This document shows positions 10,850-55,969 of a stretch of 64,000 nt of DNA, in pieces. The DNA is taken from the NCBI GenBank assembly GCA_000091205.1, contig AP006493.2. The stretch is one strand, 5' to 3'. The stretch is from Cyanidioschyzon merolae. Lineage: Eukaryota. Positions within the stretch are counted from its first letter, which is position 1. Each line of letters opens with the position of its first letter. A model generated the notes under the pieces. It worked only from the letters and a program-made list of their open reading frames with translations, did not search any database and was not told where the DNA came from. Position numbers and translations under genes: made by a program.

Positions 10850-10990
10850 CTTTCTTTTAGTCTTTCAACACAATTACGTTCCACGTCCAGGTGTGTATCA
10901 TTAGCTGCTTTTACCCGGGTTATAGCAGATGCGTTCAAAGTGCGTTCATTGGAAGAAATAAAAAGTCCAAGGGAATGGGACGGGTACATA
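10850..10990. other. Copy 1 of a conserved ~140-bp intergenic element; its paralogue lies at 16430-16570.
   Basis: Roughly 75% nucleotide identity over ~140 bp, e.g. cgtccaggtg.gt.tc...ctgctttt.cc....tta.tagca.atg.gtt.a..gtgcgttcatt.gaagaaata. It lies 170-320 bp upstream of the MPP-alpha start. Confidence 0.5.
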
Positions 10991-15225: not shown

Positions 15226-16429
15226 ATCGGTCACGAGTAAAGCAAGCTGCTTCGTAAAACATAACGTCCAAGGTTGTTGGATTGCATTGCAAAAGATGGA
15301 TCGTGGTTTCTGTTGAATTCGTGACGGGAATCGTGCCCGAGGATTTGGATGCGTGGGCGAGCATCAGTAGCGGCGAGTGTGCCGCTACCGCTCGAGGTAT
15401 TGATTTGCTGGCGTTCTCACGAACAGCATCAGAGGCTCGCCTCAAAGGGCGCTGCCGATGATAAAACGCTGGACGCCATTGTTCGCTCGGCGGGTCGCCA
15501 CGGCCAGTAGATAACGACGAGCGCAACGCGTACGCTAGTGACTGCATAAAGTCGCTCTCGCAGCACAGTTGCGCTCCTCCGGCAAATTGGCACGCTGTTC
15601 TCGTTGCTCTCATATCGCGTCAACCAGGACGGTAGAGGCGATTTGCTGCGCAAATAGCGGGTTTCAGTTCTCCATCGAAACCACCCGAACGGGAACCGGG
15701 TCACAACCGAATGGCCTGCAGAGTCAACTTCTGCTCCTTCCTGGACATGACATATCGGTTTGCACTGGACAGCAACGACTTGAGTTAGATTCGTGCCTCT
15801 TTGCGTTCTCAGCTGCCATCGCATACCAACAAACAGCGCACCACGATTCGTGCGCATCAAACCGGCATGTCGCTCGATGCTCGGGCGGAAAACCTCCCGC
15901 ATGGAGCGCAGCCGCATCCTCGTCAGGTATCAGCAGCATGAATGCGCGTAGTAAGCAACTTGAGGCGCTGCATGCACCCAGCTGTCCACAGTATGCACCA
16001 TGACATCGAATCGTGAACGGTGCCGGAGCGCTGCATCGGGCTAGCTATCCTGCGAGTACTCGATTGTCGCCATAGACCAGAGCGCCAGCCATGGTAACCC
16101 GGCGCATGCGCCTTCTTGCCTACAGCGCTAAACGATTCTTCTCTTCGATCACAGAGCTGGAGTCGCTCCTACCGCTTAGACTCCCCGGGTATCGAGCGTA
16201 TGAGTTGCGCCTGCCGCGTCGTCGACTACGCAAGTCCATACGCAGCACGCCAGGGAATTGGCCCTTGAAGGCTCGTATAAACGACACATGATTTTGAGAG
16301 AAGAAGCATGGATGATCGTGACTGGTGAAACCACGAAATCTGGTGCAGCACGCAACGCTACGAGACCACCACCACGATCACGACAATTATCGAGATGACC
16401 TGCAACCGACAGCGCGTTTCACGTATGGT

Positions 16430-16570
16430 CTTCCAACGCAATTGGATTCCGCGTCCAGGTGCGTGTCGTCAACTGCTTTTCCCCAGTTAATAGCAAATGT
16501 GTTGAGGGTGCGTTCATTTGAAGAAATAGAACCTAAGAGAAAGGTACAGGTATAAAAGTCAATAATCCTG
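16430..16570. other. Copy 2 of the same conserved ~140-bp intergenic element as 10850-10990.
   Basis: Same alignment as above. It lies ~450-600 bp upstream of the giant plus-strand gene. Confidence 0.5.
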
Positions 16571-25029: not shown

Positions 25030-25072
<43 letters not shown>

Positions 25073-25880
25073 GAATCGGGGCGTTGCTCTGGAGCCTCTG
25101 GTCCAAGTGCTCCCGCTGACGGCTCGTGAGGCGGCGTTACGAACGGATGATCACGAACGTCCAGGTCTCGGTATTCAAGCACGATCTAGTGCTGGTGCTA
25201 GCCAAGAAGCACATCTTGACCAGCTGACGTCTGTGCTTGCAGCCGGCAATGCTGCAGCGACCTGCGCGCCACCAGCGCCCGAAACAAGCTCGTGTTTGGT
25301 GACTGGTACGCAACAACAGCTACCGCACGTGACGCCAAGTGCTTCCATGTTGCCGCAGTTCTCCGGCCAGTCTCCAGCATGCTTGTCAGCAGCACCGACA
25401 GCTGGTACCACCGGGAAACATCGCCTGCTGCAGCAAACGACCGGTGCATCCGATGCGCCTTTCGGAGATGAGCGGGCACGCCCAGGAACACCACTGACTT
25501 GCAGCGGTGATACCGCACCACGCTCGAGCAGTTTTGGAACCCCGATGGCAACCACGACAACAATGTCAAGTTCGCTGCCTCATGGATCGAACCGGAGCAC
25601 CGCCAGTGACCTAATCGCTGCACTCGGGGTGTTCCCGTTCCACGAGTTGGCGTATCCAGGTCGGGTGCTTCGTGAGATACGCGCAGTCTGTCCGAGCTCG
25701 ATTACCGCTTTTGTGCCGCTGCCGTACTTGCCCTTGTTTGAGCGTGCGGTGCTTCAAGTGCTGCATATCCACGAAGGAAACCGACGGGTGCGTTCTGTTC
25801 AGCAGCTCGTGGAGACCCTGCTGCGTACTTTTCTTGAGCAACAGATTCCAGTGGCTTTTGTACATGGTCATTTCGACTGA
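17169..25880 (+). CDS. Giant hypothetical protein (~2900 aa from the first ATG; the ORF is open from 17028 with GTG). Extremely Ser/Ala/Thr/Pro-rich with poly-Ala, poly-Ser and poly-Thr runs, plus central and C-terminal alpha-helical Leu-rich blocks.
   Basis: Single uninterrupted 8.85 kb ORF ending in TGA at 25878-25880. Embedded coding microsatellites include (TCG)8 at ~23051 and (ACT)6(GCT)9 at ~25021-25075. No recognisable enzymatic domain. Confidence 0.55.
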
Positions 25881-26166: not shown

Positions 26167-26186
26167 AAACACACACACACACACAC
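26167..26186. repeat. (AC)10 dinucleotide microsatellite.
   Basis: acacacacacacacacacac read directly. A (TG)n counterpart lies at ~11651-11675. Confidence 0.9.
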
Positions 26187-26418
26187 AGATCCAGCAACTG
26201 GAACGTGCAGCCAGACTCGTGCAAAGAGCGGGACGCCCGCAGGCGTTGGCCGCTTCACGGAAAACATACACACCTCAGCGTCACCACGGTATTGGGTATC
26301 GATCGATTATCGCACTGCAGGATTCTCGTGACGTCCTGCTTCGGAATGCCGCCTATACTAGACGCTGTGTTCGTATCCTGTCCCCGGACAGGTAACCATG
26401 CATCCCAAATACATGCAG

Positions 26419-27204
26419 TCATTCGGACTTGCTGTTCAGAACAGAGGTGGCTTGCGAACTCGGAGGTCGCTCCGCTGGAATCGCTGCAGATGCGGATCCA
26501 GGAACAACGGGGCCCGCTTGATGGACAAGGAGTCCTCGTTCCGTGGATAGGCTGAGAGAGCTTTTGGTGCTACCATTTAAACCACCACCACCACCACCAC
26601 CACCACCACCACCCAAGGCCCGCATGATGCCCAGAATGAGCATCACCGCTGTGCCGGCAGCGCCAATGACCCACTTGATCACGCGGTTCTCGATTCGCTC
26701 CAACTCGGTGTAGATCTGAGCCATGAACGTTTCGACTTTCTTTTCCACGAGCTGGAGATCACTTCTCAATACAGCAAAGTCTGCTTTTTCAAGGATTTGC
26801 ATCTCGCTCTTGAGAGCTGAGAACTCGGCCTTGGTGGCAACCACCTCGGTGTTATAGGCCAGCGCATCTGCGATGATCTGTGAGAGCGCACTCGATAGCG
26901 CTTCTGCTTGTTTAGGTGTAAACTCTGATGCTTCAAATACTCTGACAAGCTTCAAGGTATCGAAAGCGATCCGTTGTCCAGCTGGAGCGCGCTGCTCGCC
27001 GCAAGCGCGGAACCTCCGCACGTCCACGGGCGCTCGTAAGCGCCCCGCAACAACAAGAGGCAGCAGGCCTGCGGCTGTTGGTAAAGTGCCTGGAACCCCT
27101 TTTCTACAGGTTTGCTGTTGCAGCAGCTGCAGCGAGAGCAGAGGTGAACCTGCCCGTCCGAGTGACCAGGCACTTGGCAAGAGCGTACGCCAGGTACCGC
27201 CCAT
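26419..27204 (-). CDS. DUF1640 family protein (yeast Fmp32 / human CCDC90B-MCUR1-like), probably mitochondrial, with a C-terminal transmembrane anchor and a (Gly)13 tail tract.
   Basis: FDTLKLVRVFEASEFTPKQAEALSSALSQIIADALAYNT...coiled coil...IKWVIGAAGTAVMLILGIM is the DUF1640 architecture. The ORF is open to 27432 but that codon is TTG; the first ATG is at 27204. The Gly run is encoded by (CCA)n at 26581-26613. Confidence 0.65.
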   Translation of the reverse strand: MGGTWRTLLPSAWSLGRAGSPLLSLQLLQQQTCRKGVPGTLPTAAGLLPLVVAGRLRAPVDVRRFRACGEQRAPAGQRIAFDTLKLVRVFEASEFTPKQAEALSSALSQIIADALAYNTEVVATKAEFSALKSEMQILEKADFAVLRSDLQLVEKKVETFMAQIYTELERIENRVIKWVIGAAGTAVMLILGIMRALGGGGGGGGGGGLNGSTKSSLSLSTERGLLVHQAGPVVPGSASAAIPAERPPSSQATSVLNSKSE

Positions 27205-27452
27205 GAGGACGACAAACCGGGACCGGGTGGAACGCAAACGTACCGGCGTTGGCGAAGCGCGGCTTCTGGTGCGCTTTCCACCACGCGTCCTGGATACACC
27301 TGTGTCGGCGGACAGAGTCGAGTGCACTGGATAGAAGCTGTGTCGGTATGTTTGGATTGTTGGTGATTGTGGTGAACGGCGGGCTTTGCGGGTAGTTCTA
27401 CGAGTTGTTGCTTTTTTATCGACGGTTTTCAATACGCCGCTATCTCCGTAGT

Positions 27453-28629
27453 CCCTTGTTCTGATGCCAGCAGTGGACAGGTACGAACGATGGCAGCGAT
27501 ACCCAAGTGCCGATTGCTCTGCTTCCGGTGCTTATCGACGACGCATTCAATGGACCGGCAAAAGATGCGACCCGTGCTGCACTTGCCGTTCCCCATGTCC
27601 TATGCATCAAGCCTTGACGTACCGTTCGCAGTGCCGGCACTTGACTGCTTGCAGGGATTTTCATGCGTCTAGTACATGTCTCATTCTCCGCCGAGGCCTA
27701 CCCTGCGGTGCTCCAAGCCTGGCTACAGAGCGCTCCACTCGATACCCGCGTTCGATTTTCGCACCCAGTGCAGTGTCCTAGGAGCACGCGCTTCTTCCAG
27801 GCGATGCTCTCAGCGAGTACGCGATCCGCTGCATACGCAAGCGCATACTCTGGTAATCGATCGGGGGTTTGCGGACTCCGATGCCGTCCCTGATGACGAA
27901 ACGATCACAGCAACGAAAACAATGCAGCAAGTTGAGAAGTATCGATGCATCGAGGCTCCCGCAGTGCAACGCGGTGACGTACGCTCCACTCGAGGCGATT
28001 GCTCCAACGACGCTCGTTCGAGTCCGGGTCCCTCGTCGATGCAAACCGCAGAGACTGGAGTCTCCCGGTGCGTATACCGATCGATATATCTCGCTGTTGC
28101 GGAATGCCGTCTCGTTAACCGTCACGAAGCACAGAGGATTCGTCTTTCAAACGGGACTTATGATTGTTCGTGACAAGTCCGGACCACTTTGGGGCAGGCG
28201 CTTGCGGCCAGGTTACCAAACGACGTCGTCGATACTGGTCTTCATGGTCAGTCCAGCGGCGCGACTGGTATTGAAACAGATACATCCATGAACGATAATG
28301 TGTGATGCTCATTTGCAACACGTCAGGAACTGAGAAGCATTGGAGGCTGCAACGTAAGCACTGGGCAGTGGTATCGGGTATTCCAGGATCACGCTTGGTG
28401 GCGGGCGTTGTAACTCATCGTGATTCCAGTGTCGTACCGAATACTTGCGACAAAGCATCGCAGGTCCCGGTCCTGAACCAAGACCCAGAATCCTGAAACG
28501 AGGTATGCATCCGGCATTGCATATGATTTCTCCTCGAGTATCGAGACTGAGCATCCGAGAAAACGGCTGGTAAGATTTGAAGCCAGAATCACAGCGAGCA
28601 TTCCAGAGCTTCACTCTAATCTGAGACGC
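27453..28629 (+). repeat. Dispersed repeat family, copy A (~1.18 kb, 5'-truncated by ~125 bp relative to copies B and C).
   Basis: Near-identical to 31327-32638 and 55970-57271, with a handful of SNPs. Same orientation. No TIRs, LTR-like ends or target-site duplications are evident, and there is no convincing ORF. It abuts the 5' end of the DUF1640 gene. Confidence 0.85.
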
Positions 28630-28991
28630 TTATAGAACGCATTCGTATGCGTTCTAGATGCCCTAACTCCGGTACCAATCTCTGGAGCAGCTCCCGCACT
28701 CGGCAGCATTCCGAACGACACCATGATATCATGAAGCGAACTGGTGCTCGCCCGTTCGCTGCACTGCAGATCGTAAAGAGGCCCTCTTCCCTTCACCATC
28801 ACTGCGCGAGCAAGCAGGCACGTTCGGGCGAGCTCACCATCCACAGATCAACCGAACCGTTGTGGAGTGTGCTCATACGCGGAGCGACTGCATCCGACGC
28901 TTCCCAGGCTTGCGCGCTCGTCTCGGTATCGATGCCTCCGGGGATACCGCCAGCATCTGCTCCCGTCACTCACACAGATGATAACCTGTTT

Positions 28992-30974
28992 CTATGCCAA
29001 GCCAACAACATAATCTTCCTGATTCTTGTCCAGTTGTTGTAGGATGCTTTGTGCAATGTAGTCCGCTGCACCAGCTTGACCCATCACGAGCGCGGCTTGT
29101 TCCCGCAAAAACGCACATATCGACGCTCGCTGGGCGGTATCACGTAGCGCGCTGCAAACTCGGAGCACCGCCTTGGAGACTGCGTCGCCATGCTCTCGCT
29201 GCGGATCCGCGAGGATAACACTCGGGCCAAGGAGACGTCCTTGGGCCTCCCAGAAACCTCTTGTGAACTGAGGTCCTCTCCCCGGTGACGTGATCACTGG
29301 TTTACCCAAACCTACCGCCTGCTCTGTCGCAGTACCGGCACATGCGAACACCAGGTCGGCTCGCTGAAGACAAAGTTTCAGCGGATTTCCTGTCACCAGA
29401 GAAGATTCGCTAGACGATTGCGAACTCCAGAATCGGAGACGATGGCCGCCACTTGCGTACAGCATTTCACCAGTAGATTCTTGGGTAACATCAGCGCTAT
29501 CTCTGGATGCATCTTCCGTCGAGTGGTTTGTCGGATGCCAGCCGAGCTTTTGAGCGAGCCCGCCTAGACAAGCACAGTCCAGTGTAGAGGCAACGGGAAC
29601 CTCCAGCGAGAGCCGGATATCGTCAGCGTTCGTGAGCGCCTGCTCCAGCTCGCTCAGCATCCGTTCCCAGTTTCGATACGCCTCGGGGGCTCGCGAGCCC
29701 GGCAGCACCGCAACCACTAGGAAAGGCTCTGCGTCGTGCACCCGATGCGACTCGATATCCGCGGTTTCCGTTAGATCATCGAGCATGGGATTGAGTGCAT
29801 AGGGCGCCACTCGTGGAACATCTAAGCGCGATAGGTTGCGAGCCGTCAGCTGATCCCGAACGTAAACACCCGCAGTACCGAGACGCCGCATGAGCCAACG
29901 CTCCCACGGCAAATAGACGCTGGATCCTGTTAGGAGCGCTTCGAAAAGCCTCGCAAGTCGCCAGAAGAACGGAGCGCGCCAAATCCTATACCGACGATAC
30001 ATGAAGACTGCATATTGGACATCCAGAAGCAGCAGGCGCAGAAAGCGCCAGCAACCTTGGAGTCTCGCGTGCCAGCCGGGCGCCCTAGCCGCTGCACCCA
30101 GGCAAAAGCGAGACGCTTCGCTTGTGTTCAGGCCGTACACCCAGCGATCGCTGGTCCACCGATGAGGATACGGTTGCATAAATAACCATTCGCCGGCGGG
30201 ACTCTGAAGATAGAGGTCTGATTTTGCCGTCCCAATGAAGACGCCGTGTTGGACGCCGCTCTGGACTGCCAGGAAGAGCGGCCATACATCGCCGACCGCC
30301 AAGACGACGAAGCGCACCGACCGCAACATGTAAGCCGGCACCTGGGTGCTCTTCTCATGCAGCCAATATCGACTGCGCCTCCATTGTCCAATGACGATAC
30401 GAAAAAGACCTGCGGCGATATCGCGGAGCAATGCCCATGGTCGAGCGTAGATGAAGCCTCCACTCGGCAACGTTGCGCGAGGTTGCAGGAGACACAGACT
30501 GGGGACCCTGTTCGGCATCGCTGAGGCGTTGCTTGTCGCGGGCTCTTGATGCAGCTCGAGCGCCAGCTCTTGAGCGAGCCGCATATAGGCACTGCCAATG
30601 CCGACCAGCGGCAGCACATCCACGTGCAACCAAGACGAGGTATGGTGGTAGAGAGCGCGAAGTACCTGGGCAGCAACGAGGTCCTCTCCGTGTCCGTTAC
30701 TCAAACACAGCGCCACCGTGCCTTCAGGAGCGACCGCTTTCCCGTCGACATGGGCACCTGTCTGGGCTCGCAGCAGGTTTCCAGCAGCAGGTCGGGCTCG
30801 TCGCTTTGCAACCCGTTTCTGTGGCGGGTACGTCAAGTTTACGAACCGTCGAGGGGCATGTTCCAGCGGCTTGACCGACACCACCCGCCTCGACTGGCGC
30901 TGGACGGGCACTAGCCAGCCCGTCCCGAGCGAAGCACCTCTTCGGTGGCCTTCGAGTGTCCGGTGTGGACTCAT
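28992..30974 (-). CDS. Lipid-A-disaccharide synthase (LpxB)-like glycosyltransferase family 19 protein, 660 aa, with a long central insertion and an Arg-rich N-terminal extension.
   Basis: ATG at 30974. LpxB-type motifs: N-terminal LSNGHGEDLVAAQVLRAL (cf. VAGEASGD..GA.LI.AL), VLPGSRAPEAYRNWERMLSE (cf. LPGSRGAEVEMLS) and FACAGTATEQAVGLGKPVI (cf. ASGTAALE....CPMVV). Confidence 0.55.
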   Translation of the reverse strand: MSPHRTLEGHRRGASLGTGWLVPVQRQSRRVVSVKPLEHAPRRFVNLTYPPQKRVAKRRARPAAGNLLRAQTGAHVDGKAVAPEGTVALCLSNGHGEDLVAAQVLRALYHHTSSWLHVDVLPLVGIGSAYMRLAQELALELHQEPATSNASAMPNRVPSLCLLQPRATLPSGGFIYARPWALLRDIAAGLFRIVIGQWRRSRYWLHEKSTQVPAYMLRSVRFVVLAVGDVWPLFLAVQSGVQHGVFIGTAKSDLYLQSPAGEWLFMQPYPHRWTSDRWVYGLNTSEASRFCLGAAARAPGWHARLQGCWRFLRLLLLDVQYAVFMYRRYRIWRAPFFWRLARLFEALLTGSSVYLPWERWLMRRLGTAGVYVRDQLTARNLSRLDVPRVAPYALNPMLDDLTETADIESHRVHDAEPFLVVAVLPGSRAPEAYRNWERMLSELEQALTNADDIRLSLEVPVASTLDCACLGGLAQKLGWHPTNHSTEDASRDSADVTQESTGEMLYASGGHRLRFWSSQSSSESSLVTGNPLKLCLQRADLVFACAGTATEQAVGLGKPVITSPGRGPQFTRGFWEAQGRLLGPSVILADPQREHGDAVSKAVLRVCSALRDTAQRASICAFLREQAALVMGQAGAADYIAQSILQQLDKNQEDYVVGLA

Positions 30975-31326
30975 GGGACGCTACGGGCGCTCGGAAAGCT
31001 TGTTCGAGAAACGCACCCAGTCCAAGAGAGCCGACAGAGGCTCGTACCCGCCCGCTACCAGCCCTACCGCCCGCAACGCTGAGCTTGTCGGAAAACTGCC
31101 AAAGACCGTCGACTGCATGACGCAGCGGTGTCATGGGAACGTGGACTGGATACGATTGCGGAGCTTCTGGTATTCGTTCGGGTCAACGGGGACGATGGAC
31201 TTGAGGATCTGTAGAGTAGATTGAAGGAAGCCCAACTCGAGCGACGGGAGAGTCCAGCATCCTTGCACCGTACTGGTCGCTGTCTCGCAGACTCTTTGAT
31301 AAACTCATGCGATATTAGCGCAGGAT

Positions 31327-32638
31327 AAAACGGGTGCACTTGGGTAACTCGGGTGTACAGACTCCAGTTTGGGCTCTCTTTGCTCTGTCATAGACAGAAG
31401 CTTATGCAGGACGTTGCTTCTCCGGTATCCTCGTCTTCAAATACGACGGTATCTGGGGTGCCTTCAGGTCCCTTGTCAGCAGTGGACAGGTACGAACGAT
31501 GGCAGCGATACCCAAGTGCCGATTGCTCTGCTTCCGGTGCTTATCGACGACGCATTCAATGGACCGGCAAAAGATGCGACCCGTGCTGCACTTGCCGTTC
31601 CCCATGTCCTATGCATCAAGCCTTGACGTACCGTTCGCAGTGCCGGCACTTGACTGCTTGCAGGGATTTTCATGCGTCTAGTACATGTCTCATTCTCCGC
31701 CGAGGCCTACCCTGCGGTGCTCCAAGCCTGGCTACAGAGCGCTCCACTCGATACCCGCGTTCGATTTTCGCACCCAGTGCAGTGTCCTAGGAGCACGCGC
31801 TTCTTCCAGGCGATTCTCTCAGCGAGTACGCGATCCGCTGCATACGCAAGCGCATACTCTGGTAATCGATCGGGGGTTTGCGGACTCCGATGCCGTCCCT
31901 GATGACGAAACGATCACAGCAACGAAAACAATGCAGCAAGTTGAGAAGTATCGATGCATCGAGGCTCCCGCAGTGCAACGCGGTGACGTACGCTCCACTC
32001 GAGGCGATTGCTCCAACGACGCTCGTTCGAGTCCGGGTCCCTCGTCGATGCAAACCGCAGAGACTGGAGTCTCCCGGTGCGTATACCGATCGATATATCT
32101 CGCTGTTGCGGAATGCCGTCTCGTTAACCGCCACGAAGCACAGAGGATTCGTCTTTCAAACGGGACTTATGATTGTTCGTGACAAGTCCGGACCACTTTG
32201 GGGCAGGCGCTTGCGGCCAGGTTACCAAACGACGTCGTCGATACAGGTCTTCATGGTCAGTCCAGCGGCGCGACTGGTATTGAAACAGATACATCCATGA
32301 ACGATAATGTGTGATGCTCATTTGCAACACGTCAGGAACTGAGAAGCATTGGAGGCTGCAACGTAAGCACCGGGCAGTGGTATCGGGTATTCCAGGATCA
32401 CGCTTGGTGGCGGGCGTTGTAACTCATCCTGATTCCAGTGTCGTACCGAATACTTGCGACAAAGCATCGCAGGTCCCGGTCCTGAACCAAGACCCAGAAT
32501 CCTGAAACGAGGTATGCATCCGGCATTGCGTATGATTTCTCCTCGAGTATCGAGACTGAGCATCCGAGAAAACGGCTGGTAAGATTTGAAGCCAGAATCA
32601 CAGCGAGCATTCCAGAGCTTCACTCTAATCTGAGACGC
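31327..32638 (+). repeat. Dispersed repeat family, copy B (full length, ~1.31 kb).
   Basis: Near-identical to copies A and C. It lies between the LpxB-like gene start (~350 bp away) and the 3' end of the DHQD-SDH gene. Confidence 0.85.
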
Positions 32639-33126
32639 ATCTAGATCCTGAGCACATCCTTTCTGGCTCAGTGGCATGCGCCCAATCTGCGAGGACTTTC
32701 TCGAAAGCATTCGCTTTACGCCGTACTTCTTCATCACGTACTGATTAGAAACGGAGGCTGCGTCAAAAAGCGAGCGAGGTAGGCGCTCCGGGGTCCACGG
32801 ATCACAAGCCAAGCACCATGCATCCCGCATGACGACGTTACCTGCATCCGAGCATACAGATGCGCTATTGCAGGGCATCATGTCGCAGAGACGCATACAA
32901 GCTGCAGCGCATACCTGCAAGCGCTGGACGTGCTCTCTCGGACACTGTCCAACGGCGCCCCGGTCAAGCACTGCGGAACCAGGAAAGCATCCAAAATGCG
33001 CTATCCATTATGAATCTAGAAGCAGATCTGCACGACCTCGTCGAGGGCATCTTCTGATGCGCGTCAACGAAGTTGTTTCCGCTTTACATCCGAACCGACC
33101 GCTCTCTGTGTGGAACACGCGTACAG

Positions 33127-34755
33127 TCAGCGTCGGGCCAGCTGCCCAAGTTCCTGGAGTACAATGTTGCGCATCTCCTGTGCCGGGGCCCTCAAGCCCG
33201 TCCAGATGGTAAACTGGGCTGCGGCCTGTCGGACGAACATCTCGACCCCGTCCACTGTGAGACAACCTCGTCGCTTTGCCAGACTCAGAAGCCGCGTTTC
33301 TATTGGATTATAGACGGCGTCGAACACGAGGCAGTGCGGCTCCAGAATCTCCTCTGGAACCGGAACGACATTCACATCTGGATGCATGCCAATGGAGGTG
33401 GAATTCATCAGAATATCGATTCGCTCTCGGGTAGCAGGGTTCCTCTGCTGTTGACAAAAGTCCTCTAGTGAGAGCGCAACTAGCTCTGTCTTCCCGAAAG
33501 GACTCAAATCATTTGCGAGCGATCTTGCTCTTTCCAGGGTACGATTCACGATAGTGAGTTTGCCGCAGCCGCAGTGTACGACCCCGAAGGCGATCGCCCG
33601 TGCCGCACCACCGGCTCCCAGGAGGACGACATGGCGTCGCTGGAGTGCCGTCAAGCGAGCCTGCCCCTGTTCGATTCCGGGCATCAAGGTCTCGGATACT
33701 GCATCTACCGCTGCCTGCCAATCGGTGTTATAGCCCTTGCGTCGGCCCGTGAGCGGATCCACCACGATCGTATTCACTGCCCCGATCTGCTTCGCCACAT
33801 CATCCAATTCGTCCAGGCACTCCATGATGCGCTGCTTATGGGGAATGGTCACACTGGCCCCGCGCAAGCCAAACTGCGTCATGGTATCGAGAAACTTTTG
33901 CAACTTAGAGCCGTCCTGAACGAGAAAGGGAAGGTAGACGTGGTTCAGACGGCAGAGTCCAAAGGCGTGGTTATGGATCCGCGGGCTCATTGAATGCCTG
34001 ACGGGTGCCCCGATAACCCCATAGACTGTGGTATCAGGGTTCAGGCTATGGAAACGATAATGATCGATGAGTTCTTCGATCCGGAATTGACCCGGTGCAG
34101 ACGCCCGTGCCTCGCTCAGCGTTGTGAACGTCAGCATTGCAGGTCCAAACTTGGCGGCAAGAACTCGGCTGATCTGCCCATACTCTCCCATTCCTATAGC
34201 AATCGTAGGTTTGCTGCCAGCAGTGCGCTTCAGTAAGGCAAATAGTCGCGCGTTGTCGCACAAGTCGTGGCACATCATGGCGATCTTGCAAATATCAGCT
34301 CCGGTTGCCACGATTGCCGTGTAGATTTCAGCGAGCTCCGCTTCAGTTAATGGTCGCGTGAAGCTATGATAGGAGACGATGAGTCGTGGACGAGTGGATG
34401 CATCTTGGAGCTGGACGCTCTCCGGCATCCGAAACAGGTCCATGTTCGCGAGTTCGACGTCCACGTACTCAACGCCGTGTTGAACAGCGCGCTGCAACAG
34501 CCTCACTCGCTCGTGATCGTTCATATCGGATAAACCTCCCTCACAAACAGGACGATATGTGAAAACCATAGGCAGAGGCCGTTGATCTACTACCCGCTCC
34601 CAGGACTCCCCCTCGGCGAGGTAGTCGGCACGGAACTCGACGAGGTCAGCGCCGGCCCTTCGTGCCTCGTACATGTCGGCTATCGCTTCTTCTGCAGAGT
34701 TCGCTGTTATAGATGTACATATTAGACAGCGAATTCCTGCACCTGAAACAGGCAT
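33127..34755 (-). CDS. Bifunctional 3-dehydroquinate dehydratase (type I) / shikimate 5-dehydrogenase (plant-type DHQD-SDH), 542 aa.
   Basis: ATG at 34755-34753. N-terminal DHQase-I domain; C-terminal SDH domain with GVIGAPVRHSMSPRIHNHAF and the NADP-binding LLGAGGAARAIAFG. No obvious transit peptide before the DHQase domain. Confidence 0.85.
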   Translation of the reverse strand: MPVSGAGIRCLICTSITANSAEEAIADMYEARRAGADLVEFRADYLAEGESWERVVDQRPLPMVFTYRPVCEGGLSDMNDHERVRLLQRAVQHGVEYVDVELANMDLFRMPESVQLQDASTRPRLIVSYHSFTRPLTEAELAEIYTAIVATGADICKIAMMCHDLCDNARLFALLKRTAGSKPTIAIGMGEYGQISRVLAAKFGPAMLTFTTLSEARASAPGQFRIEELIDHYRFHSLNPDTTVYGVIGAPVRHSMSPRIHNHAFGLCRLNHVYLPFLVQDGSKLQKFLDTMTQFGLRGASVTIPHKQRIMECLDELDDVAKQIGAVNTIVVDPLTGRRKGYNTDWQAAVDAVSETLMPGIEQGQARLTALQRRHVVLLGAGGAARAIAFGVVHCGCGKLTIVNRTLERARSLANDLSPFGKTELVALSLEDFCQQQRNPATRERIDILMNSTSIGMHPDVNVVPVPEEILEPHCLVFDAVYNPIETRLLSLAKRRGCLTVDGVEMFVRQAAAQFTIWTGLRAPAQEMRNIVLQELGQLARR

Positions 34756-34864
34756 TAAGCGTCGTTATACCGGTGAACACACCAAGGTGTTCTGGAACTC
34801 GCAGATGTCGCGAGAGAGGCACACCTGGCGTGTGCTCAGCGTAGGCGCTGCTGGCCCGCCTCGT

Positions 34865-36699
34865 ATCCCAATGTGGGATCAGCAGCGGTACGAATGCTGA
34901 ATGCTGCGGGTGTTGTTCGACGGACAGTTTCTGGCTATCGAAAGCGTTGACGCTTTTAAGGGCTACTGTTCCGCTGTCCCGCCTCGTATCCCAATGTGGG
35001 ATCAGCAGCGGTACGAATGCTGAATGCTGCGGGTGTTGTTCGACGGACAGTTTCTGGCTATCGAAAGCGTTGACGCTTTCAAGGGCTACTGTTCCGCTGT
35101 CCCGCCTCGTATCCCAATGTGGGATCAGCAGCGGTACGAATGCTGAATGCTGCGGGTGTTGTTCGACGGACAGTTTCTGGCTATCGAAAGCGTTGACGCT
35201 TTCAAGGGCTACTGTTCCGCTGTCCCGCCTCGTATCCCAATGTGGGATCAGCAGCGGTACGAATGCTGAATGCTGCGGGTGTTGTTCGACGGACAGTTTC
35301 TGGCTATCGAAAGCGTTGACGCTTTTAAGGGCTACTGTTCCGCTGTCCCGCCTCGTATCCCAATGTGGGATCAGCAGCGGTACGAATGCCGAATGCTGCG
35401 GGTGTTGTTCGACGGACAGTTTCTGGCTATCGAAAGCGTTGACGCTTTCAAGGGCTACTGTTCCGCTGTCCCGCCTCGTATCCCAATGTGGGATCAGCAG
35501 CGGTACGAATGCCGAATGCTGCGGGTGTTGTTCGACGGACAGTTTCTGGCTATCGAAAGCGTTGACGCTTTCAAGGGCTACTGTTCCGCTGTCCCGCCTC
35601 GTATCCCAATGTGGGATCAGCAGCGGTACGAATGCCGAATGCTGCGGGTGTTGTTCGACGGACAGTTTCTGGCTATCGAAAGCGTTGACGCTTTCAAGGG
35701 CTACTGTTCCGCTGTCCCGCCTCGTATCCCAATGTGGGATCAGCAGCGGTACGAATGCCGAATGCTGCGGGTGTTGTTCGACGGACAGTTTCTGGCTATC
35801 GAAAGCGTTGACGCTTTCAAGGGCTACTGTTCCGCTGTCCCGCCTCGTATCCCAATGTGGGATCAGCAGCGGTACGAATGCCGAATGCTGCGGGTGTTGT
35901 TCGACGGACAGTTTCTGGCTATCGAAAGCGTTGACGCTTTCAAGGGCTACTGTTCCGCTGTCCCGCCTCGTATCCCAATGTGGGATCAGCAGCGGTACGA
36001 ATGCTGAATGCTGCGGGTGTTGTTCGACGGACAGTTTCTGGCTATCGAAAGCGTTGACGCTTTCAAGGGCTACTGTTCCGCTGTCCCGCCTCGTATCCCA
36101 ATGTGGGATCAGCAGCGGTACGAATGCTGAATGCTGCGGGTGTTGTTCGACGGACAGTTTCTGGCTATCGAAAGCGTTGACGCTTTCAAGGGCTACTGTT
36201 CCGCTGTCCCGCCTCGTATCCCAATGTGGGATCAGCAGCGGTACGAATGCCGAATGCTGCGGGTGTTGTTCGACGGACAGTTTCTGGCTATCGAAAGCGT
36301 TGACGCTTTCAAGGGCTACTGTTCCGCTGTCCCGCCTCGTATCCCAATGTGGGATCAGCAGCGGTACGAATGCTGAATGCTGCGGGTGTTGTTCGACGGA
36401 CAGTTTCTGGCTATCGAAAGCGTTGACGCTTTCAAGGGCTACTGTTCCGCTGTCCCGCCTCGTATCCCAATGTGGGATCAGCAGCGGTACGAATGCCGAA
36501 TGCTGCGGGTGTTGTTCGACGGACAGTTTCTGGCTATCGAAAGCGTTGACGCTTTCAAGGGCTACTGTTCCGCTGTCCCGCCTCGTATCCCAATGTGGGA
36601 TCAGCAGCGGTACGAATGCTGAATGCTGCGGGTGTTGTTCGACGGACAGTTTCTGGCTATCGAAAGCGTTGACGCTTTCAAGGGCTACTGTTCCGCTGT
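34865..36699. repeat. Minisatellite: 123-bp unit in ~15 tandem copies, with two alternating SNP variants (gctgaatg/gccgaatg and ttttaag/tttcaag).
   Basis: Period 123 read directly (cccgcc starts at 34978, 35101, 35224, ...). Because 123 = 41 codons, all frames stay open, which produces the artefactual long ORFs 34947..36833, 35270..36007 and others. The array begins ~110 bp upstream of the DHQD-SDH ATG. Confidence 0.9.
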
Positions 36700-37613
36700 C
36701 CCGATCATATCAGGTGAGGACTATGATCGATACTGCGGGTTTGGAGCGCGTTTCCAGGGCCAAACAAGGGGCGTTCCGCACAAGCGGGACGAGTTGGACT
36801 TTTCTGGACGGTTGTCAAGGGCGTCGGCGTTGAGCGGTCGTACGAGTTTCTGCTTCGAGCTTGCAGAGGGAAAGCAGAATCGACATGCATATGTGACTGC
36901 GATGAGCAGATGCTTTTAGTGTTCAAAGCCGTTTGGCGAGTTGATGACGAGTTCAAGATCGTCGGTTGCAGCGTGCGCTGCTTCGTAGAGAGGAACAAGG
37001 ACACGAAAACCTCGAACTCGTTGTGGCGTGTCTGAAACCAATCGTGAAAGAAATCGCCAAGCATCGCTTCCAATGAGTAAATAATATATCGATACGAGAG
37101 GGTTCTGGTTAGCCTACGGATCGCTGTATGCTGTCTGCATGCGTGGGGCGCCTCTACAGCACCTATGAGAACGCGGCGATGCTCAGAAGCGAGTCCATGA
37201 CCTTGACATGACGCTGTGTACAGAGGACCTGAGGCTGTTCGTGAACAAGCTGCTGACTCTGGAATGCCCGTATCTCTTCAGTCTGGCGATAGATCGTTGA
37301 TCTGAACGTCCGAGTCCAAATCCTGTGTTCCAGGCACCGCAACTGGTTCAGTACCCGCAGTGCCCGCATCCCCGAGAGACATCATCGTATGTAGGACGTG
37401 GCGGGTGTCCCTGAACGCTTCTCGTTAACTAGACAACATGAGCGTTTGCGTTAGCCCCCCTACAAGAACATTTTAGCGAGTCTGGGTGGCGCCCAGAGCG
37501 CCCAGCTCGAATAATCTGCCTTTTGCGACAGCGTGGCAGCGGTGGATCCAACGCCCACTGGGTACCGGCTTCTGAAATCGCAAAACGTTTCCTCTGCGAG
37601 CGCGTTGCAATGG

Positions 37614-39175: not shown

Positions 39176-39207
<32 letters not shown>

Positions 39208-40562
39208 ATCGAAACTACTGGTTCCTGTGAGGGTTCTGCGAGCTGGTCGGCCTCAGCCGCGTCTGCGAGTACCCGTTCAGCGTTGGCATGCTCGCTGACG
39301 AATGGCCAAAACTGGAACCAAGACCAGTTCGATCTCTTCGCTACGGCGGCATGCAGCGCAGCTGGACGTGCGCTTTGCGTTGCCAACGCTTCCTCGGTGG
39401 ACCTTTCTGCGAAATGTTTTCCGTCTAGTTCGAGAAAGTTGAGGCCCTGCCCTCTCGTTGCCATTTGTAGGAGCACGCTCTCCAAGGTCGTTGCGTCGTG
39501 AATTGTTCCGCTACCCAAGCCTGCCATCTTCCGAATTCTCGATAGCGTGTCGCGAACTAGGCACCCCAGCAAGAGCTCGATGCATCGATGGATTCTTGCG
39601 TCTAGGCGTCGAATGAGCGCATAGGTTTTCGTTGTATCCATCCAGTCAAGCAAATGGAGCAACAGGCAGCTGCTCCAGAAAAAAGTCTCCTGATCGCGGT
39701 CAGCAGACAGCATGAGGTACTCGACGCTCAGGATCAGCATGATATACTGGCAATGCTCAAGTGCTGTCTGGTCGGGGAGAAGAGATTCCCCGCGCTGAGC
39801 CCAGCTTCGCCTCACCGCTGGCCGCAAAAAGTTGCACAAGAACCAGAAGGCCCCATGCACAGCGGCGTGCCAATCACCGGTATTGGCGATACGTGGTTGC
39901 TGATCACCAGGATCCTGCAAAGCATAGACTGCTTTCAGCTGATCCAGGGCACCCAGCGTCGCCAGTAGAACAACAGGTGCTAGTGATTCAAACGCATGCA
40001 GTGATGTCACTAGCCGTTGCATGACAAGCCCGAGCAGAGATTCCTGCTGGTCGTCCAGTGCTGCTCTAGCTGCAGATGGTGTTCCTGGATCACGCGGGAG
40101 TGCATTCGCAGCTCTGGTGTGTACAGTACCGGGGTTCACGACTTCACGCTCGAGGAAGATCAGCGCTCGAAGCCAGAGGCGATCCCCAATGGGCGGCACC
40201 GAAATCCCCTGTTGATTCGTTGGGGTGACACCAGCACCGCCAGCTGCGCTTGTTGGAACTGTGCTCTGCGCTCGGCTGTCGGATGACCAGTGCGCAGTGG
40301 CGTGCGCGACTTGTCTGTGCCAGTAGTGGGCTCCCAGGAGCCGTAGACTTTGCGCAACGCTCTCTGGGTGCACGCTGCCGCTCGCTGCACCAGTGCCCGA
40401 CACGTTTGCGTCCGCTGCTGAAGCCGCAATAGCGCTCGCAGCGTCTTGGTCTTTTGAGCGCCATGACGGGCTCAGGAGGAGGTTTGGGGGCACTTGCTTC
40501 GACTCCGGAAACTCGTTACCGTCTGCGAGTGCCTCCGCTTGGGTGTTTAACGCGTTTCCCAT
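37614..40562 (-). CDS. Large hypothetical protein (982 aa), alpha-helical (possible ARM/HEAT-like), with a (Gln)11 tract and a poly-Ala tract.
   Basis: ATG at 40562-40560 (MGNALNT...). Uninterrupted ORF. The (CTG)9 tract at ~39178-39205 encodes the poly-Q on this strand. No recognisable domain. Confidence 0.5.
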
Positions 40563-44200: not shown

Positions 44201-46160
44201 CAGCGAATCGTGCATGCCGGCGAACGCGCACCCTCAACTGCTGTCATCGTCGCAGTCGATGGAGTCTCCAGTACACGCATGGATGCGCGATGCGGACACG
44301 CATTCGCAGGCGGCGTGGCATGCTGCTGCGCGGCAACGTTCACGGCGACGACGGCGACGGCGACGGCAGCAGCAGCAGCAGCAGCAGCAGCAGGAACAGG
44401 AACATGTTGTTGCAGCGGCGATATCTGGGGCGGTAACGACGGGTGATCTGGGCACTGTTGAGGCGCGCTCGGGTCCTGCGACTGTGGACAGCGATGCATC
44501 GTCGTCGTCATGCTCGGGCGGCGAGCGCGCTACTACATGGCGTACGCAGGGAAACGATGGTACATTTCAGGGAGTCTCAGCTGGCAATGCCCAGTGCGCC
44601 ACGAGCTTGCATTCGCCCTGTATGGAGCAACTGGACTCTATATGTGTTGAGCGGACGCTTACCGACGACGACAACGCAGGCGACGGTGCCGTTGTTGTGC
44701 GATGTCGCACGAATGGGCTGACGACACAGTTCCTACTGAACCCGGCCGTAGCGCTTTGCAGGTCATGTTTTCTAGTCGAATGTGATGAATTGATCGGGCG
44801 GAGGCACTTGCTCATTCGCTGTCTAATTTTGCTGAAGGTTTGGTGGCGCCACAGCCTGGCCACTGCGCAGGCACGAGCTTTGTTGTCGCCGCTCTCCGGG
44901 TCGCTTGTCTCGCCGTTCCTAGCATTGTTGTTACTGAGCTATTTGAATTGCAGAGGCCTTCCTGGTGATGAACCAGCACATGTTTTACAAGGGCTCTTCT
45001 CTTTCTACGGATTCGATATGGACTGGTCTCGTTGCGGTATGAGCATCTATGGGCCGTTTGACATCCAAAGTGGCGCGCTGATGACGCATTTGACGACGCG
45101 CCAACCGCTTATCCCAGACGCGATGCTTCGCGCGCATCAGCTCGAGTACGCTACCTGTCGTCTGCGGTATCGGGGCAGTGGCGAAGGCAGTGCTCGCGAC
45201 CTAGGCGACACTGATGCCGGAACGCGCACTGGCTACTGCGACGAAAACGACGACAACGAGGGTGCTGGAGAGCTACGCGCCCGAACTGGTCGCCAGCGAG
45301 CGCACTTGGGTCATTTTCCCCTCAACGTATTGGATGCTCTGGACCCAGGCTGGAATATTGGGCTCCAGATGGCACCGAGCCCATCTCTAGCATTCGCACT
45401 TGTGGGGGCATTTCGCGCGACGGCACAAAAGCTGGGCGAGTTCCGGGATCGCCCCAGCCGTATGCACTTGGACTTCATCTGGGGCATCGACGGTGCGCTA
45501 AAGCCCATCTGGTCCCTAATCCATGAGCACTGTGGATCGGATGCGGTCTTGTTGCTGCAAAGAGCATTCGATGATACGCCTGCTGAGTACGCATCGGGTG
45601 AACGCGCTGCGGACGGGCTCGACCAACTGAGCAGCGGAGTCGTTCCCGCAATGCCGTCCACAACGGTACTGCGCTTTTGGGAGCTGCGGCATCTCTGTGG
45701 CCTTGCGCTCGCCCCAGAAGCCGTATCCACGTCGCCATGTTCCGACAAACGCACTGGATTACGGCAGGTGCACACATACGCATCCAGTGCTACGCGCGAA
45801 GAGCTTGGCGCTTTGCCCGATATCGGCGAGCTGAAGCAAATCCTAGCCTACGTGCGATTTCTCATTCTATTCGATACTTCCGAGGCTGGTATTTTGGCGT
45901 TCCTGCTGCAAACGCTCCGACGCAAGCGCTCGCTACTCGTTGGAGAACTTGGTCAGCTGCTGCGAAGCCGTATGAACAAGAGCGCATGGCAGACGCTCTT
46001 CAAAACACGCCACGGGGGCTTGAAGCGTTTCCTTGAACGGTATCCCGATCTTTTCCAAATCGAAAATGATCATCCGCTGAATCCGCACGTCTCACTGCGC
46101 ATTCGGGACCTCGGCCAGAACATGCACCGCAGACACCGTGGTGAAGCAACAGCTACCTGA
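41217..46160 (+). CDS. Large hypothetical protein (~1650 aa from the first ATG; ORF open from 41043 with GTG) with a possible degenerate CAF1/PARN-like deadenylase-fold segment, and poly-Q/poly-R and acidic tracts.
   Basis: The segment LVFFDGLFEIMSMYEAFYAPLPPDLDAFIATLGIVTPRVVDVRCM resembles the CAF1-family motif hNGhlDLhhhYqxFxxPLPxxxxxFxxxlxxxFPxlxDTK, but the upstream DxE position reads DNK. (CAG)10 at ~44361-44390. Confidence 0.45.
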   Translation: MSTDVLVTADTTLADLAWPIVSAAIRSATFIAFSLRTTVSVQDCERQLGSLATDTLTLDAVPDSSEPKHAGESFSPADECHIAASGAGHHQSLQRRYAVYREWITRQSVIELGMTTFRRRPMDRPWVSKARGKLSGEREPSVASGPGAEQSTKSSETAAFDVQTFRFIFLLDNKGTGSVIPCFLVTPTALRQLSGRQYKEYSGQLEVDAGAVVGSPLYSDTSDDDDNDEDDFDDVDVDDDVAHACTTVTAALSKSEPYESATQQRVPEIAASTESLGWDRTAENVLGLALRQGIRYLPPRSQVTMETTPNSLPQPAVPLCSAASFETNAQRECPSLNSVDVAGGTLQGLATSTAHAASLKTAGLGARSREWASLPPSTAKGEGAQLFRMLAESGVPLVFFDGLFEIMSMYEAFYAPLPPDLDAFIATLGIVTPRVVDVRCMTALMNLHGSRKTRAPCRANANDLRPGEALLALMVRVALQSASVKHRHLLESIRGGRCFVNHPHAQALRRQAQAFAQQHNNTSARQRDGTGSDASLDNAGKQVGIILDGQQPPNESADSGAAGLATWDLEQMLTENSEPANAGEYASMLLVPLARAQTNALERYGQSSSDGTAAGSWPAPGVPADALADCTPLNEADACELIAALEDQELPDDALADFDMPPQNVSGNTRGAALRAFHVGAVLAYLLERHGWSAIMDRFRGCISSGYGDDAIRLREPGSDANAAMYTGSTGSGPDVIQGKLTFPVTSAASWRSRVGGFVSASDSKRITSPESQADADRVPAEARDWDQRHQARSTLHQGQHAEASPPANAFLSETPTIRTTVSAAAVAAPTPTLHQQSKAASLTPSSTVGHALADEWISRLVSLLAPNRLTEMLYERTLMAASSIAQRALGAHSFAVGSYAEKTYLWESGLDVGVFIAGATNNNNKCTHTQGHVSGVTGSPRRAATPNPNDDVHDDASCISDAWPTRLAAALCARATLLAFRRSTAVPASIADHSSESCMPANAHPQLLSSSQSMESPVHAWMRDADTHSQAAWHAAARQRSRRRRRRRRQQQQQQQQQEQEHVVAAAISGAVTTGDLGTVEARSGPATVDSDASSSSCSGGERATTWRTQGNDGTFQGVSAGNAQCATSLHSPCMEQLDSICVERTLTDDDNAGDGAVVVRCRTNGLTTQFLLNPAVALCRSCFLVECDELIGRRHLLIRCLILLKVWWRHSLATAQARALLSPLSGSLVSPFLALLLLSYLNCRGLPGDEPAHVLQGLFSFYGFDMDWSRCGMSIYGPFDIQSGALMTHLTTRQPLIPDAMLRAHQLEYATCRLRYRGSGEGSARDLGDTDAGTRTGYCDENDDNEGAGELRARTGRQRAHLGHFPLNVLDALDPGWNIGLQMAPSPSLAFALVGAFRATAQKLGEFRDRPSRMHLDFIWGIDGALKPIWSLIHEHCGSDAVLLLQRAFDDTPAEYASGERAADGLDQLSSGVVPAMPSTTVLRFWELRHLCGLALAPEAVSTSPCSDKRTGLRQVHTYASSATREELGALPDIGELKQILAYVRFLILFDTSEAGILAFLLQTLRRKRSLLVGELGQLLRSRMNKSAWQTLFKTRHGGLKRFLERYPDLFQIENDHPLNPHVSLRIRDLGQNMHRRHRGEATAT

Positions 46161-48279
46161 CAAGTGGCGGCTTTCGAGCTGGACTCGAAATCCAGGTCCA
46201 TTCAAGAATCGTCCATATCCTGTTATGGAACGGAATCGTTTGCAAGTGGAAGTCGACTGCACTCGCCGTGTCTGAATGGGCCCCGGCGGCGAGCCGGCAC
46301 GTACATCGACAAAACGCGTGCCACAGGTTGGATCACTCGGACACGAGTTGTTCTGGGCACCTTTTCGTGGCTTTCGCTGAGATGCATCTTTCGGGAGTCG
46401 TTGGAGCGCTCGCACTCCACCGATTTACCGCAGCATCCACTACAGGGCAGCGCCGGGCGCTTTCGTATTCCAGCACTGGTTTGCGTGGCTGGTTCGGACA
46501 GGCAAGTAGAACGCGAATCTCGGCGACGTCTGCAAGTCAGCTCGAGGCGTATCGACAGCGTCCAGCGGGGAGGCAGTTGATGACGCGCGCGACTGGCACG
46601 CCCGGGCTACTACCCGGGCTCATCGTCATCGACCGTACACCACAGAGCGATCGATCTTCGAATCATTGATTGGAATTCTGGCCCGTATTCGTCGCCTGTT
46701 GACCGTAAGAAATGCGATCTCCAAAGAATTAGCAGGGAGCTGTGTTCATATGCATCGATTGGAGACCATACATCCATGTGTGAAGAAAATGGAACGGGTA
46801 TACGTTCCTAACTCGGACGTAAAAACCAGATATCGGGGTTTGCTTTCCACGACGATCAAGAGAAGCCTCTGCGAAATTTTTCTATGACTGCTTGCTTTTT
46901 TCCTCGTTATCTCCGGTTTCAGTGACGCGGGTCTCTCCGTTTTCCCGCAGTTCTGTTATCAGCAGTGCATGGATGGGTGATGAGGATGACGGTGATTACG
47001 GCAGCGTTCAAGTTCCAACTGTGCTGCGTCCGGCTATTATCAACGCGCGCACTGCATAGACGGTTGCTGTGATCGACGCTGTCCTTTACATTTTCATTCT
47101 CTACATTTCCATGCTCGGTGCGCGCTTCGTAGCAGTGACTCCGGAGTTTGGTCAGGTGTTATCGTATGCTCATTACTCCGTCTTCGCCGCCGAGAGCTGC
47201 CCAGTGGTGCATGAACGATTGCTACATGGCGCGGTACGTGGCCTTGACGAGTACCGCTGGCGGTCGTCGATGCCCTCCTCCGTTTCCCGCGCCTAGCACG
47301 ATACCTTAGGATCACGGGCTTCTTCCGGGTGTATTCCCTTGGCGAGTACGCTGCCCCATTCAATAGCAGGTTTCGGAACGATATGTTGTCTAGAAGAAAA
47401 TAAGCATCGGAATGAAAATCTGCGCTGAGGAACGCAATTTCAGAATTTCGAACGGTCGACGCTCCGTTCTTGCGAAACGGTGACGCACGCTTCTCTCGAA
47501 TCGATTTCGGTGATGCCTCAAGTCCGAATCCAGGTCTCGTTTCCACGCGAGCAGCAGAGACGGGAGCATCTGCGCGCAAATCCCAGGAGAGGTATCATGT
47601 GTGTTCGGAATGCTGTTTCGTCGATGACCGGAGAGAGAAGCGAATTTGTCTTTGAAACAGAGTGAATTATTTGATGGGATAAGATTTGTGAACATTCAGC
47701 GTGGGCCAGTGAACAAATCGACAAGCGATGCCAACGAGTTGCCTAGAAACCGAATGATCGACAACCAGAACATTGCATAACACGGGCATGATACACGTAT
47801 GGCAAGGAGAAGCATCCGGGTTTTCACGAACGAGTTGGATCATCATATCGCTTCCATGACCCAGCCTTTTGTTAAACAACGTCAGGAATTATCTTGATTC
47901 TGGTGACGCAACGAGCTTCAGTATCAAAGAGTGGAAGGACCCGCTCCGGATAGACGACCGAGAACCCGACCAATATCAATGCATCTGTAAGCCCATGTTA
48001 GCGCAGTCTGGATCCGCAGGCGGTGCATCAAAGGAAACGTGCTGCGTAAACAGGACGTAGAGGAACAGATCGCCCAGTTCAGCGTACCCGAATCATCTGT
48101 CCCGAATATACCTATTTAGCGTCTTAGCGAACCAAAAGGACTTGTAGGTATTTTACTGGAAAAACTAGCCATTCGCGCGGCGATGCTCGGCGATCGCGTC
48201 CTGCGCTGGCGCCGCCCCTGCCAATCCTACTACTTCGCCATCCAGCCTGCTTCTCTGCTTTCAGCCTATCGCTGCGCCC

Positions 48280-55454: not shown

Positions 55455-55969
55455 CCGTAGACTCGTACAACAAGTACACGTCACTCCAGGCGCCTTAGTT
55501 GCGCTCGGGCGTGTGAAGCCGATGTAAACGTGTGCAGGATCCAAGCAATCGACAGTGTCGTCCGCTTCCAAAACGCGTTAGCAGTGCAGTTGCAGCGTCT
55601 ACGCAGTGCCGTTGCGTTCTTTTCGGTTTTCGACACGACGTTTCGATGCGCCATGGATTCCATCCTGCTGGACGGATACTGGTATTCGTGGAAGCGTTCA
55701 TCACCATGTTGCACTCTACTTCCAGGTTCCATGGACCGTAGTTCGTTTCGGAGGAACTGTTATCTTGTTGCTAGTTACTGGATAGTTTATGTTCGTTTTC
55801 CGCACCGTTGCAGCTAGTAAATGGTTTGTTTCTGGGCTTTTTTTTCTCGCGCAGCGAATCGATGCTATCGTATGCTTTTTAGGGACCAGTAGCGTCGCTG
55901 ATGCTGGTGGCAACCCATATCCATCGATCGATAAGGTTGTACACGTCTCAGACAAGAATGGAACGGGTG

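Follow-up and report, generated by a model that had tools for sequence, protein, structure and literature searches.

The window analysed here comprises 64,000 nucleotides (nt) of Cyanidioschyzon merolae 10D chromosome 11, in which a glycosyltransferase gene (BAM80611.1) lies between two nearly identical direct repeats, named A and B. Four of the proteins encoded in the window are identical to proteins on record for strain 10D. The glycosyltransferase gene, an ordinary nuclear one, already occupied its present site before Cyanidioschyzon and Cyanidiococcus separated. The arrangement as a whole is best explained, and in our judgement quite likely to be explained, by a long-resident gene of cyanobacterial derivation that is flanked by chance by copies of a decayed transposon family. 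The elements would be later additions that settled in the intergenic spacers, and they would flank the gene by an accident of position.

Repeat copies and gene order at the locus

Comparison of the window with itself (BLAST and alignment) confirmed that a single gene is bracketed by direct repeats, as the original prediction had described. The ungapped alignment of copy A (27465–28636) with copy B (31474–32645) is 1,172 nt long and contains 9 mismatches (99.2% identity), a similarity far beyond chance; the two copies start 4,009 nt apart, and exactly one long open reading frame (ORF), of 660 amino acids (aa) and on the minus strand, is placed between them. They do not form a pair, as had been assumed. 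The same comparison revealed a third copy, C (55962–57273), 99% identical to both A and B, and a nucleotide profile of the three copies (nhmmer) detected a diverged fourth copy, D, in the window. B and C have in common an additional 145 nt on the left that are absent from A, and the segment preceding the core of A (27348–27464, ~80–115 nt) aligns to the family at ~55% only, that is, at the level of its old members. The core of A begins 260 nt upstream of the start codon of the adjoining CCDC90-like gene.

The order of the genes CAF1-like, Dymeclin-like, dehydroquinase/shikimate dehydrogenase, glycosyltransferase, CCDC90-like and ~2,650-aa protein is the same in the window, in Cyanidiococcus yangmingshanensis and in a second cyanidiophyte, whose glycosyltransferases are 55% and 57% identical to the C. 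merolae protein, respectively. In these two relatives the spacers beside the gene are short (778–984 bp), and no copy of the repeat family was detected at the syntenic locus. Since the gene order is kept in relatives without detected repeats, the repeats appear to have come to the gene, and not the gene with the repeats.

The repeat family and its termini

Two further diverged copies, E and F, were located with nhmmer on contig L029, which runs across the window's right end and is 99.5% identical to it where the two overlap. This brings the family to four copies in the window and two just outside it. Over ~1.1–1.2 kb, the identity of D, E and F with A, B and C, and also among themselves, is 54–59%. 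All copies measure ~1.35 kb and end at common alignment columns. An inverted motif, approximately ACCCGTNTCAGA on the left and its reverse complement on the right, sits at both ends of C, E and F. The two terminal inverted repeats (TIRs) match at 14 of 17 positions in C (a 9-nt perfect match, extended), at 12 of 13 in F and at 14 of 24 in E, in every case at the aligned termini of the family. The left TIR of B is degenerate (8 of 17 positions), and A is devoid of it, starting at position 68–82 of the family model. A TA dinucleotide is found, at variable offsets, next to the left terminus in C, D and E and next to the right terminus in A, B, D and F; D alone has it on both sides.

On the sequence features available, the family is most likely a decayed class II (TIR) cut-and-paste DNA transposon, because it combines defined ends, inverted repeats and dispersed, decayed copies. 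The family is non-coding: a codon-usage scan gave no coding signal, the variants among copies and strains displayed no third-position bias (counted by eye), every reading frame is interrupted and none of the copies retains an intact ORF. A 115-aa ORF on the minus strand of A, B and C carries motifs that resemble those of DDE transposases (Table 1). The homologous region reads VIDETAF in D, TMDETE...FITGNISCHK in E and IDDRAF..YAPR..VIAAIAGSGAYV..FITDNTAFHK in F. To our eye these minus-strand remnants of D, E and F resemble the D-E, YAPRG and DN..H motifs of the IS630/Tc1 superfamily, and they are spaced as expected from the end of the element; the assignment to IS630/Tc1 is a lead only.

Neither the repeat ORFs nor the whole-frame translations matched any NCBIfam or PHROGs model, translations of the repeat gave no tblastn match in plasmids, and exact look-ups of the repeat ORFs in the protein collection found none on record. 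No protein is annotated in the repeats, since the annotated proteins on their flanks carry consecutive accession numbers. Searches for RNA genes in the repeats with Rfam, at gathering and at permissive thresholds, and for tRNAs returned nothing credible.

Origin of the near identity of A, B and C

The three young copies have nested boundaries: the longest is B, whose first 145 nt are absent from A, and C ends 7–9 nt before the right boundary that A and B have in common. To the left of the core of A, ~80 nt that are ~55% identical to B and C abut directly the 99% core. A would be a chimera in which an old, diverged left end is joined to a young core. This structure suggests a recombination event in which sequence of the B/C type replaced, or became attached to, an older copy already resident there; a clean transposition would not leave such a chimera. 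Past the ends of the repeats no homology was found between the flanks, apart from a marginal signal at the left of A. The cause of the identity among A, B and C is probably a recent gene conversion or duplication, as read from these boundaries; homologous recombination would have copied part of one of them over, or beside, older family members, whether by conversion or by local duplication.

The copies of A in other samples keep variants specific to A (27467, 27806 and 28236), and so the duplication predates the splits of the sampled strains. These copies differ from A of the window at 2–12 of 1,167 sites, mostly at 2–7, with contig L004 at 12; A, B and C of the window differ from one another at 8–12 sites. 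A general concerted evolution of the three copies, suspected from the divergence of the repeat in contig L001, was rejected, given that the A copies of other strains retain the A-specific variants and that most of them differ at 2–7 sites. In contig L001 (JGI 3300050390), equivalent to window positions 27844–28636, 25 of the 793 sites of the repeat-A part deviate from the window (3.2%), whereas the adjoining unique DNA differs by 0.5%. Eighteen of these differences are unique to the contig, 8 of the 18 being C>A or G>T, a pattern unlike that of the A copies of other strains; L001 may represent a divergent strain or assembly noise.

The strongest competing explanation, which we nevertheless regard as unlikely, is that A, B and C arose by recent transposition, as members of a young subfamily that was mobilised in trans. 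The right terminus is common to the three copies within a few bases, the family has TIRs and defined ends, near-identical bursts within old families are typical of transposons, and eight class II elements have been reported in this genome (Nozaki et al. 2007, PMC1955436). Against this stand the absence of intact left termini in A and B, which makes them not competent for cut-and-paste in their present form, the nested boundaries and the diverged left end abutting the core of A. No target-site duplications are seen at A, B or C, and all three are found within 30 kb in one orientation. In addition, a scan of public metagenome contigs with a 24-mer from the right edge of the repeat gave the three known contexts only.

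It seems improbable that the repeat is kept in several spacers because it is functional, for example as a block of promoter or enhancer sequence or as the gene of a long non-coding RNA. Each of A, B and C is upstream of a minus-strand gene, at 260 to ~500 nt from its start codon, and interspersed repeats of this genome have been reported to be transcribed (Nozaki et al. 2007, PMC1955436). However, nearly all the genes here are on the minus strand, so that any insertion into a spacer falls upstream of one. D, E and F have drifted to ~55% without a conserved block above a few bases, F is inverted relative to the other copies, and there is no Rfam match.

Structure of the locus in other samples

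All the contigs from other samples that cover the gene (16 of 16) are collinear with the window. One of them (L019) runs ungapped from inside A to inside B (window 27468–31506), three more (L017, L018 and L025) span all of A, and no deletion junction was seen among the fetched contigs. Within the reach of short-read contigs, the A–B spacing is thus invariant across samples. In natural populations the locus appears stable, and A and B do not look like the arms of a working composite transposon. Contig L020 (JGI 3300050378) contains the gene and the first 170 nt of B and then, at 31498, joins 375 nt (L020 1–375) that are absent from the window and from the other fetched loci; it could be a chimera of the assembly, or else the left part of the element in a different genomic context.

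Several observations weigh against a chance flanking by decayed transposon copies that were later homogenised. The best transposase match of the repeat ORF, to Pfam DDE_3 (IS630/Tc1-type), is not significant (E=0.21), and D, E and F have no Pfam match at all. A profile search of the Protein Data Bank (PDB) with a four-sequence profile of the element gave no match and a PDB sequence search was also empty, as were searches of a 5.8-billion-protein set with the DDE-like peptide and the six-frame translation; the negatives of the repeat-translation searches are weak, since even the near-identical ORFs predicted on metagenome contigs failed to come up. No clean pair of target-site duplications was found, the flanking repeated words of 5–12 nt at A, B and C being not above chance. 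The homology of the left end of A depends on ~80 nt (p ~0.04 in a shuffle test), and gene conversion is mechanistically hard between copies that are only ~55% alike. Copy-number variants are still conceivable, because no contig spans A, the gene and the whole of B. Lastly, contig L005 (JGI24721J44947_10043176; 4,022 nt) is a circular permutation of just one repeat and the gene: it reads from 30852 to 32645 and then from 28637 to 30864, the repeat being a hybrid whose left side resembles B and whose right side resembles A, and the ends of the contig overlap by 13 nt. This contig represents either an assembly cycle over a collapsed repeat or a real circle or tandem duplication.

L005 bears directly on the composite or mobile cassette that the original prediction had proposed, in which A and B would let the gene be excised, amplified or moved as a unit. 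Direct repeats of 1.17 kb that are 99.2% identical lend themselves well to homologous recombination, formally to pop-out as well as to duplication, and in this limited sense the recombination potential stands. C. merolae recombines homologous DNA efficiently. The hybrid junction of L005 is exactly the one expected of a circle or a tandem duplication, but a contig of this type also arises when an assembler collapses a direct repeat, and the other contigs are all collinear, without a deletion junction. Synteny of the gene extends to Cyanidiococcus and to another cyanidiophyte, in which the repeats were not detected; A has lost its outer terminus, the left terminus of B is degenerate and neither a transposase nor an intact ORF is present. 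With this evidence a cassette is very unlikely.

That the repeats are an artefact of the reference assembly can practically be dismissed: beyond the general risk that repeats entail, contigs from several metagenomes and sequencing runs cross both junctions of A, both junctions of B and the right junction of C at 99.2–99.7% identity, and because they reproduce the junctions of A and B these two copies are not artefactual; the left junction of C is known from the reference, no fetched contig having covered that point.

The glycosyltransferase and its protein family

BAM80611.1 is annotated as 'hypothetical protein, conserved' and bears the automatic UniProt name 'Lipid-A-disaccharide synthase'. 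It had been described as an LpxB-like GT19 enzyme, which proved too strong. The Pfam search gave no domain above threshold, and the LpxB model (PF02684) itself fails to place the protein (E=0.23, 10.7 bits for a cut-off of 22.6), whereas NCBIfam TIGR03492, 'lipid-A-disaccharide synthase-related protein', is matched with 293.5 bits for a cut-off of 219.2 (E=2e-87). TIGR03492 is a family of hypothetical function distantly related to LpxB. Its cut-off is exceeded by all ten members of our alignment, including those from Cyanidium, Riccia, Chlorokybus and Mesostigma and the homologue from the Prasinoderma cluster, and none of the ten has another NCBIfam match at E≤0.001; the Pfam LpxB model matches 8 of the 10 weakly (best E=2.6e-6).

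The AlphaFold model predicts a GT-B fold, with predicted local distance difference test scores of 80–90 in the core. The structures closest to this model are UDP-GlcNAc 2-epimerases, MGD1, MurG and many other glycosyltransferases, with an LpxB homologue ranking 23rd. An hhalign comparison with Escherichia coli LpxB aligned the LLPGSR region alone, and a PDB search with the sequence profile of the glycosyltransferase gave weak UDP-GlcNAc 2-epimerase matches only.

The bacterial affinity that had been proposed for the gene holds and is specifically cyanobacterial: after the cyanidiophytes, the closest matches are all from cyanobacteria (31–41% identity). An exhaustive search recovered 707 cluster representatives at E≤0.001, with eukaryotic homologues in Cyanidium caldarium (46%), Riccia, Chlorokybus, Mesostigma, Prasinoderma, Closterium and Chara. 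The eukaryotic spread covers the Cyanidiophyceae, early-diverging green algae, streptophyte algae and a liverwort. The gene would descend from a gene of the cyanobacterial ancestor of the plastid.

Of the two unusual regions that had been noted in the protein, the Arg-rich extension is real. It is N-terminal, comprises 87 aa with 13 Arg (net charge +13) and is probably an organelle-targeting peptide; according to the alignments, all eukaryotic homologues have an N-terminal extension. The single central insertion of ~200 aa is instead split, relative to the cyanobacterial homologues, into inserts of ~29, 14, 83 and 40 aa. The ~83-aa insert (residues ~268–350) is found in Cyanidiophyceae only, is rich in Arg, Trp and Phe and is predicted to be helical at low confidence.

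In three cyanobacterial genomes no lpx gene was found within 7 kb of the homologue, and no conserved operon surrounds it. In two of these three genomes a gene of the PF04029 family (2-phosphosulpholactate phosphatase) is the convergent neighbour of the TIGR03492 gene (L013 8352–9086; L016 8833–9618); no other neighbour is common to them.

The acceptor of the enzyme, raised as a question in the original prediction, is a genuine one: in the literature nothing was found that deals with TIGR03492, 'lipid-A-disaccharide synthase-related' or the neighbouring locus tags, nor anything relevant on Cyanidioschyzon together with LpxB. Our best guess is a UDP-sugar-dependent transferase that would act on a membrane-associated acceptor in the plastid. 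More speculatively, and with little expectation of being right, TIGR03492 could be the glycosyltransferase of an undescribed envelope glycolipid pathway, possibly one making a lipid-A-like disaccharide lipid, that came from the cyanobacterial ancestor of plastids and was kept in Cyanidiophyceae, early-diverging green algae, streptophyte algae and bryophytes; in the red-algal enzyme the helical insert of ~83 aa, rich in Arg and aromatic residues, would then serve as a membrane anchor.

Features of the window and further observations

The coordinates of the repeat copies and of the genes discussed are collected in Table 1. CMK271C (BAM80613.1) is also among the annotated neighbours of the glycosyltransferase gene.

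Table 1. Repeat copies, repeat ORF and genes at the locus. Positions refer to the window, except for copies E and F, which are given on contig L029 (SRR35626556).
Feature	Position	Strand or orientation	Description
Repeat copy A	27348–28637	+	99% core at 27465–28636; left terminus missing
Repeat copy B	31304–32647	+	Longest of the three near-identical copies; core 31329–32645 is 99–100% identical to C
Repeat copy C	55934–57280	+	Full length; TIRs at ~55941–55960 and 57254–57273 (CGTCTCAGA / TCTGAGACG)
Repeat copy D	46764–48113	+	~54% identity with A, B and C; lies in the intergenic spacer that separates the CAF1-like and mitochondrial S5 genes
Repeat copy E	L029 542–1937	As A–D	~0.2–1.6 kb past the right end of the window
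Repeat copy F	L029 4666–6063	Inverted	~4.3–5.7 kb past the right end of the window; longest transposase-like remnant
115-aa repeat ORF	31787–32134 (in B); 27778–28125 (in A); 56420–56767 (in C)	−	Motifs resembling those of DDE transposases, VNETAF..YAPG..VVGAIASSGAYV..VIRDG..RK; homology without statistical support
CCDC90-like gene	26419–27204	−	261 aa from the first ATG
Glycosyltransferase gene (BAM80611.1 / XP_005536647.1)	28992–30974	−	660 aa; TIGR03492, GT-B fold
Fused 3-dehydroquinate dehydratase / shikimate dehydrogenase gene (BAM80612.1)	33127–34755	−	Conserved neighbour beyond copy B

The spacer between the dehydroquinase/shikimate dehydrogenase and Dymeclin-like genes contains a tandem array (34850–36703) of 15 copies of a 123-nt unit, 99% identical to one another. 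One frame is open throughout it (a 628-aa ORF at 34947–36833, with 41-aa repeats), but the annotation has no protein at this place. In Cyanidiococcus the corresponding spacer measures only 757–970 bp, and in short-read contigs the array is collapsed to ~2 units. A direct match of 101 nt (79% identity, plus strand) connects 10860–10960 with 16428–16528. Microsatellites are placed at 25045–25078, 26170–26190, 39177–39211 and 44366–44393; the (CA)n run near 26.18 kb lies in the spacer after a 2,950-aa ORF, and the (CTG)n/(CAG)n runs are inside long ORFs.

Discussion and comparison with known systems

For the idea as it was posed the outcome is mostly deflating, in that the reading of the flanked gene as a mobile cassette is not supported. 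The locus is informative in other respects. C. merolae is cited among the most transposon-poor free-living eukaryotes, and here a TIR family with copies of ~1.35 kb fills ~8% of 64 kb. The three copies, which were probably homogenised or duplicated recently, offer a handle on ectopic recombination in a genome that is used for gene targeting. The glycosyltransferase belongs to a family common to cyanobacteria, red algae and early green-lineage plants on which no paper was found, and C. merolae, being easily knocked out, is a good place to learn the role of the enzyme.

The arrangement of A, B and the gene resembles that of bacterial composite transposons such as Tn9 and Tn10, with two copies of the same element in direct orientation flanking one gene of bacterial ancestry. 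It differs from them in the missing outer end of A, in the lack of a transposase and of a duplication around the unit, and in the position of the cargo gene, which in relatives without detected copies of the element occupies the ancestral syntenic site.

Within the same genome, Nozaki et al. 2007 (PMC1955436) described 8 class II elements, 26 non-LTR elements and a 253-copy interspersed element of 3.2 kb on average with an ORF weakly similar to WSV486, the class II elements being assumed to be of ~3 kb. Like the family described here, those elements are dispersed, have truncated or degenerate ORFs and show weak protein similarity at best. The sizes given for the interspersed and class II elements are larger (~3 kb, against ~1.35 kb here), as compared by description.

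The IS630/Tc1/mariner transposons are unlike the present family in that the latter has no significant transposase homology (best E=0.21), no clean pair of TA duplications and no intact ORF, and in that two of its three young copies are without an intact left end. The two have in common the class II layout, with a size of ~1.3 kb, short TIRs kept among diverged copies and intergenic dispersal, as well as TA near several termini and minus-strand D-E..F, YAPRG and DN..H-like remnants at the expected spacing and position.

As for the enzyme, its likeness to LpxB (CAZy GT19; PF02684) would extend to the GT-B fold, an N-terminal glycine-rich loop, the LLPGSR..E sequence with which the C-terminal domain starts, and a GTATxE motif.

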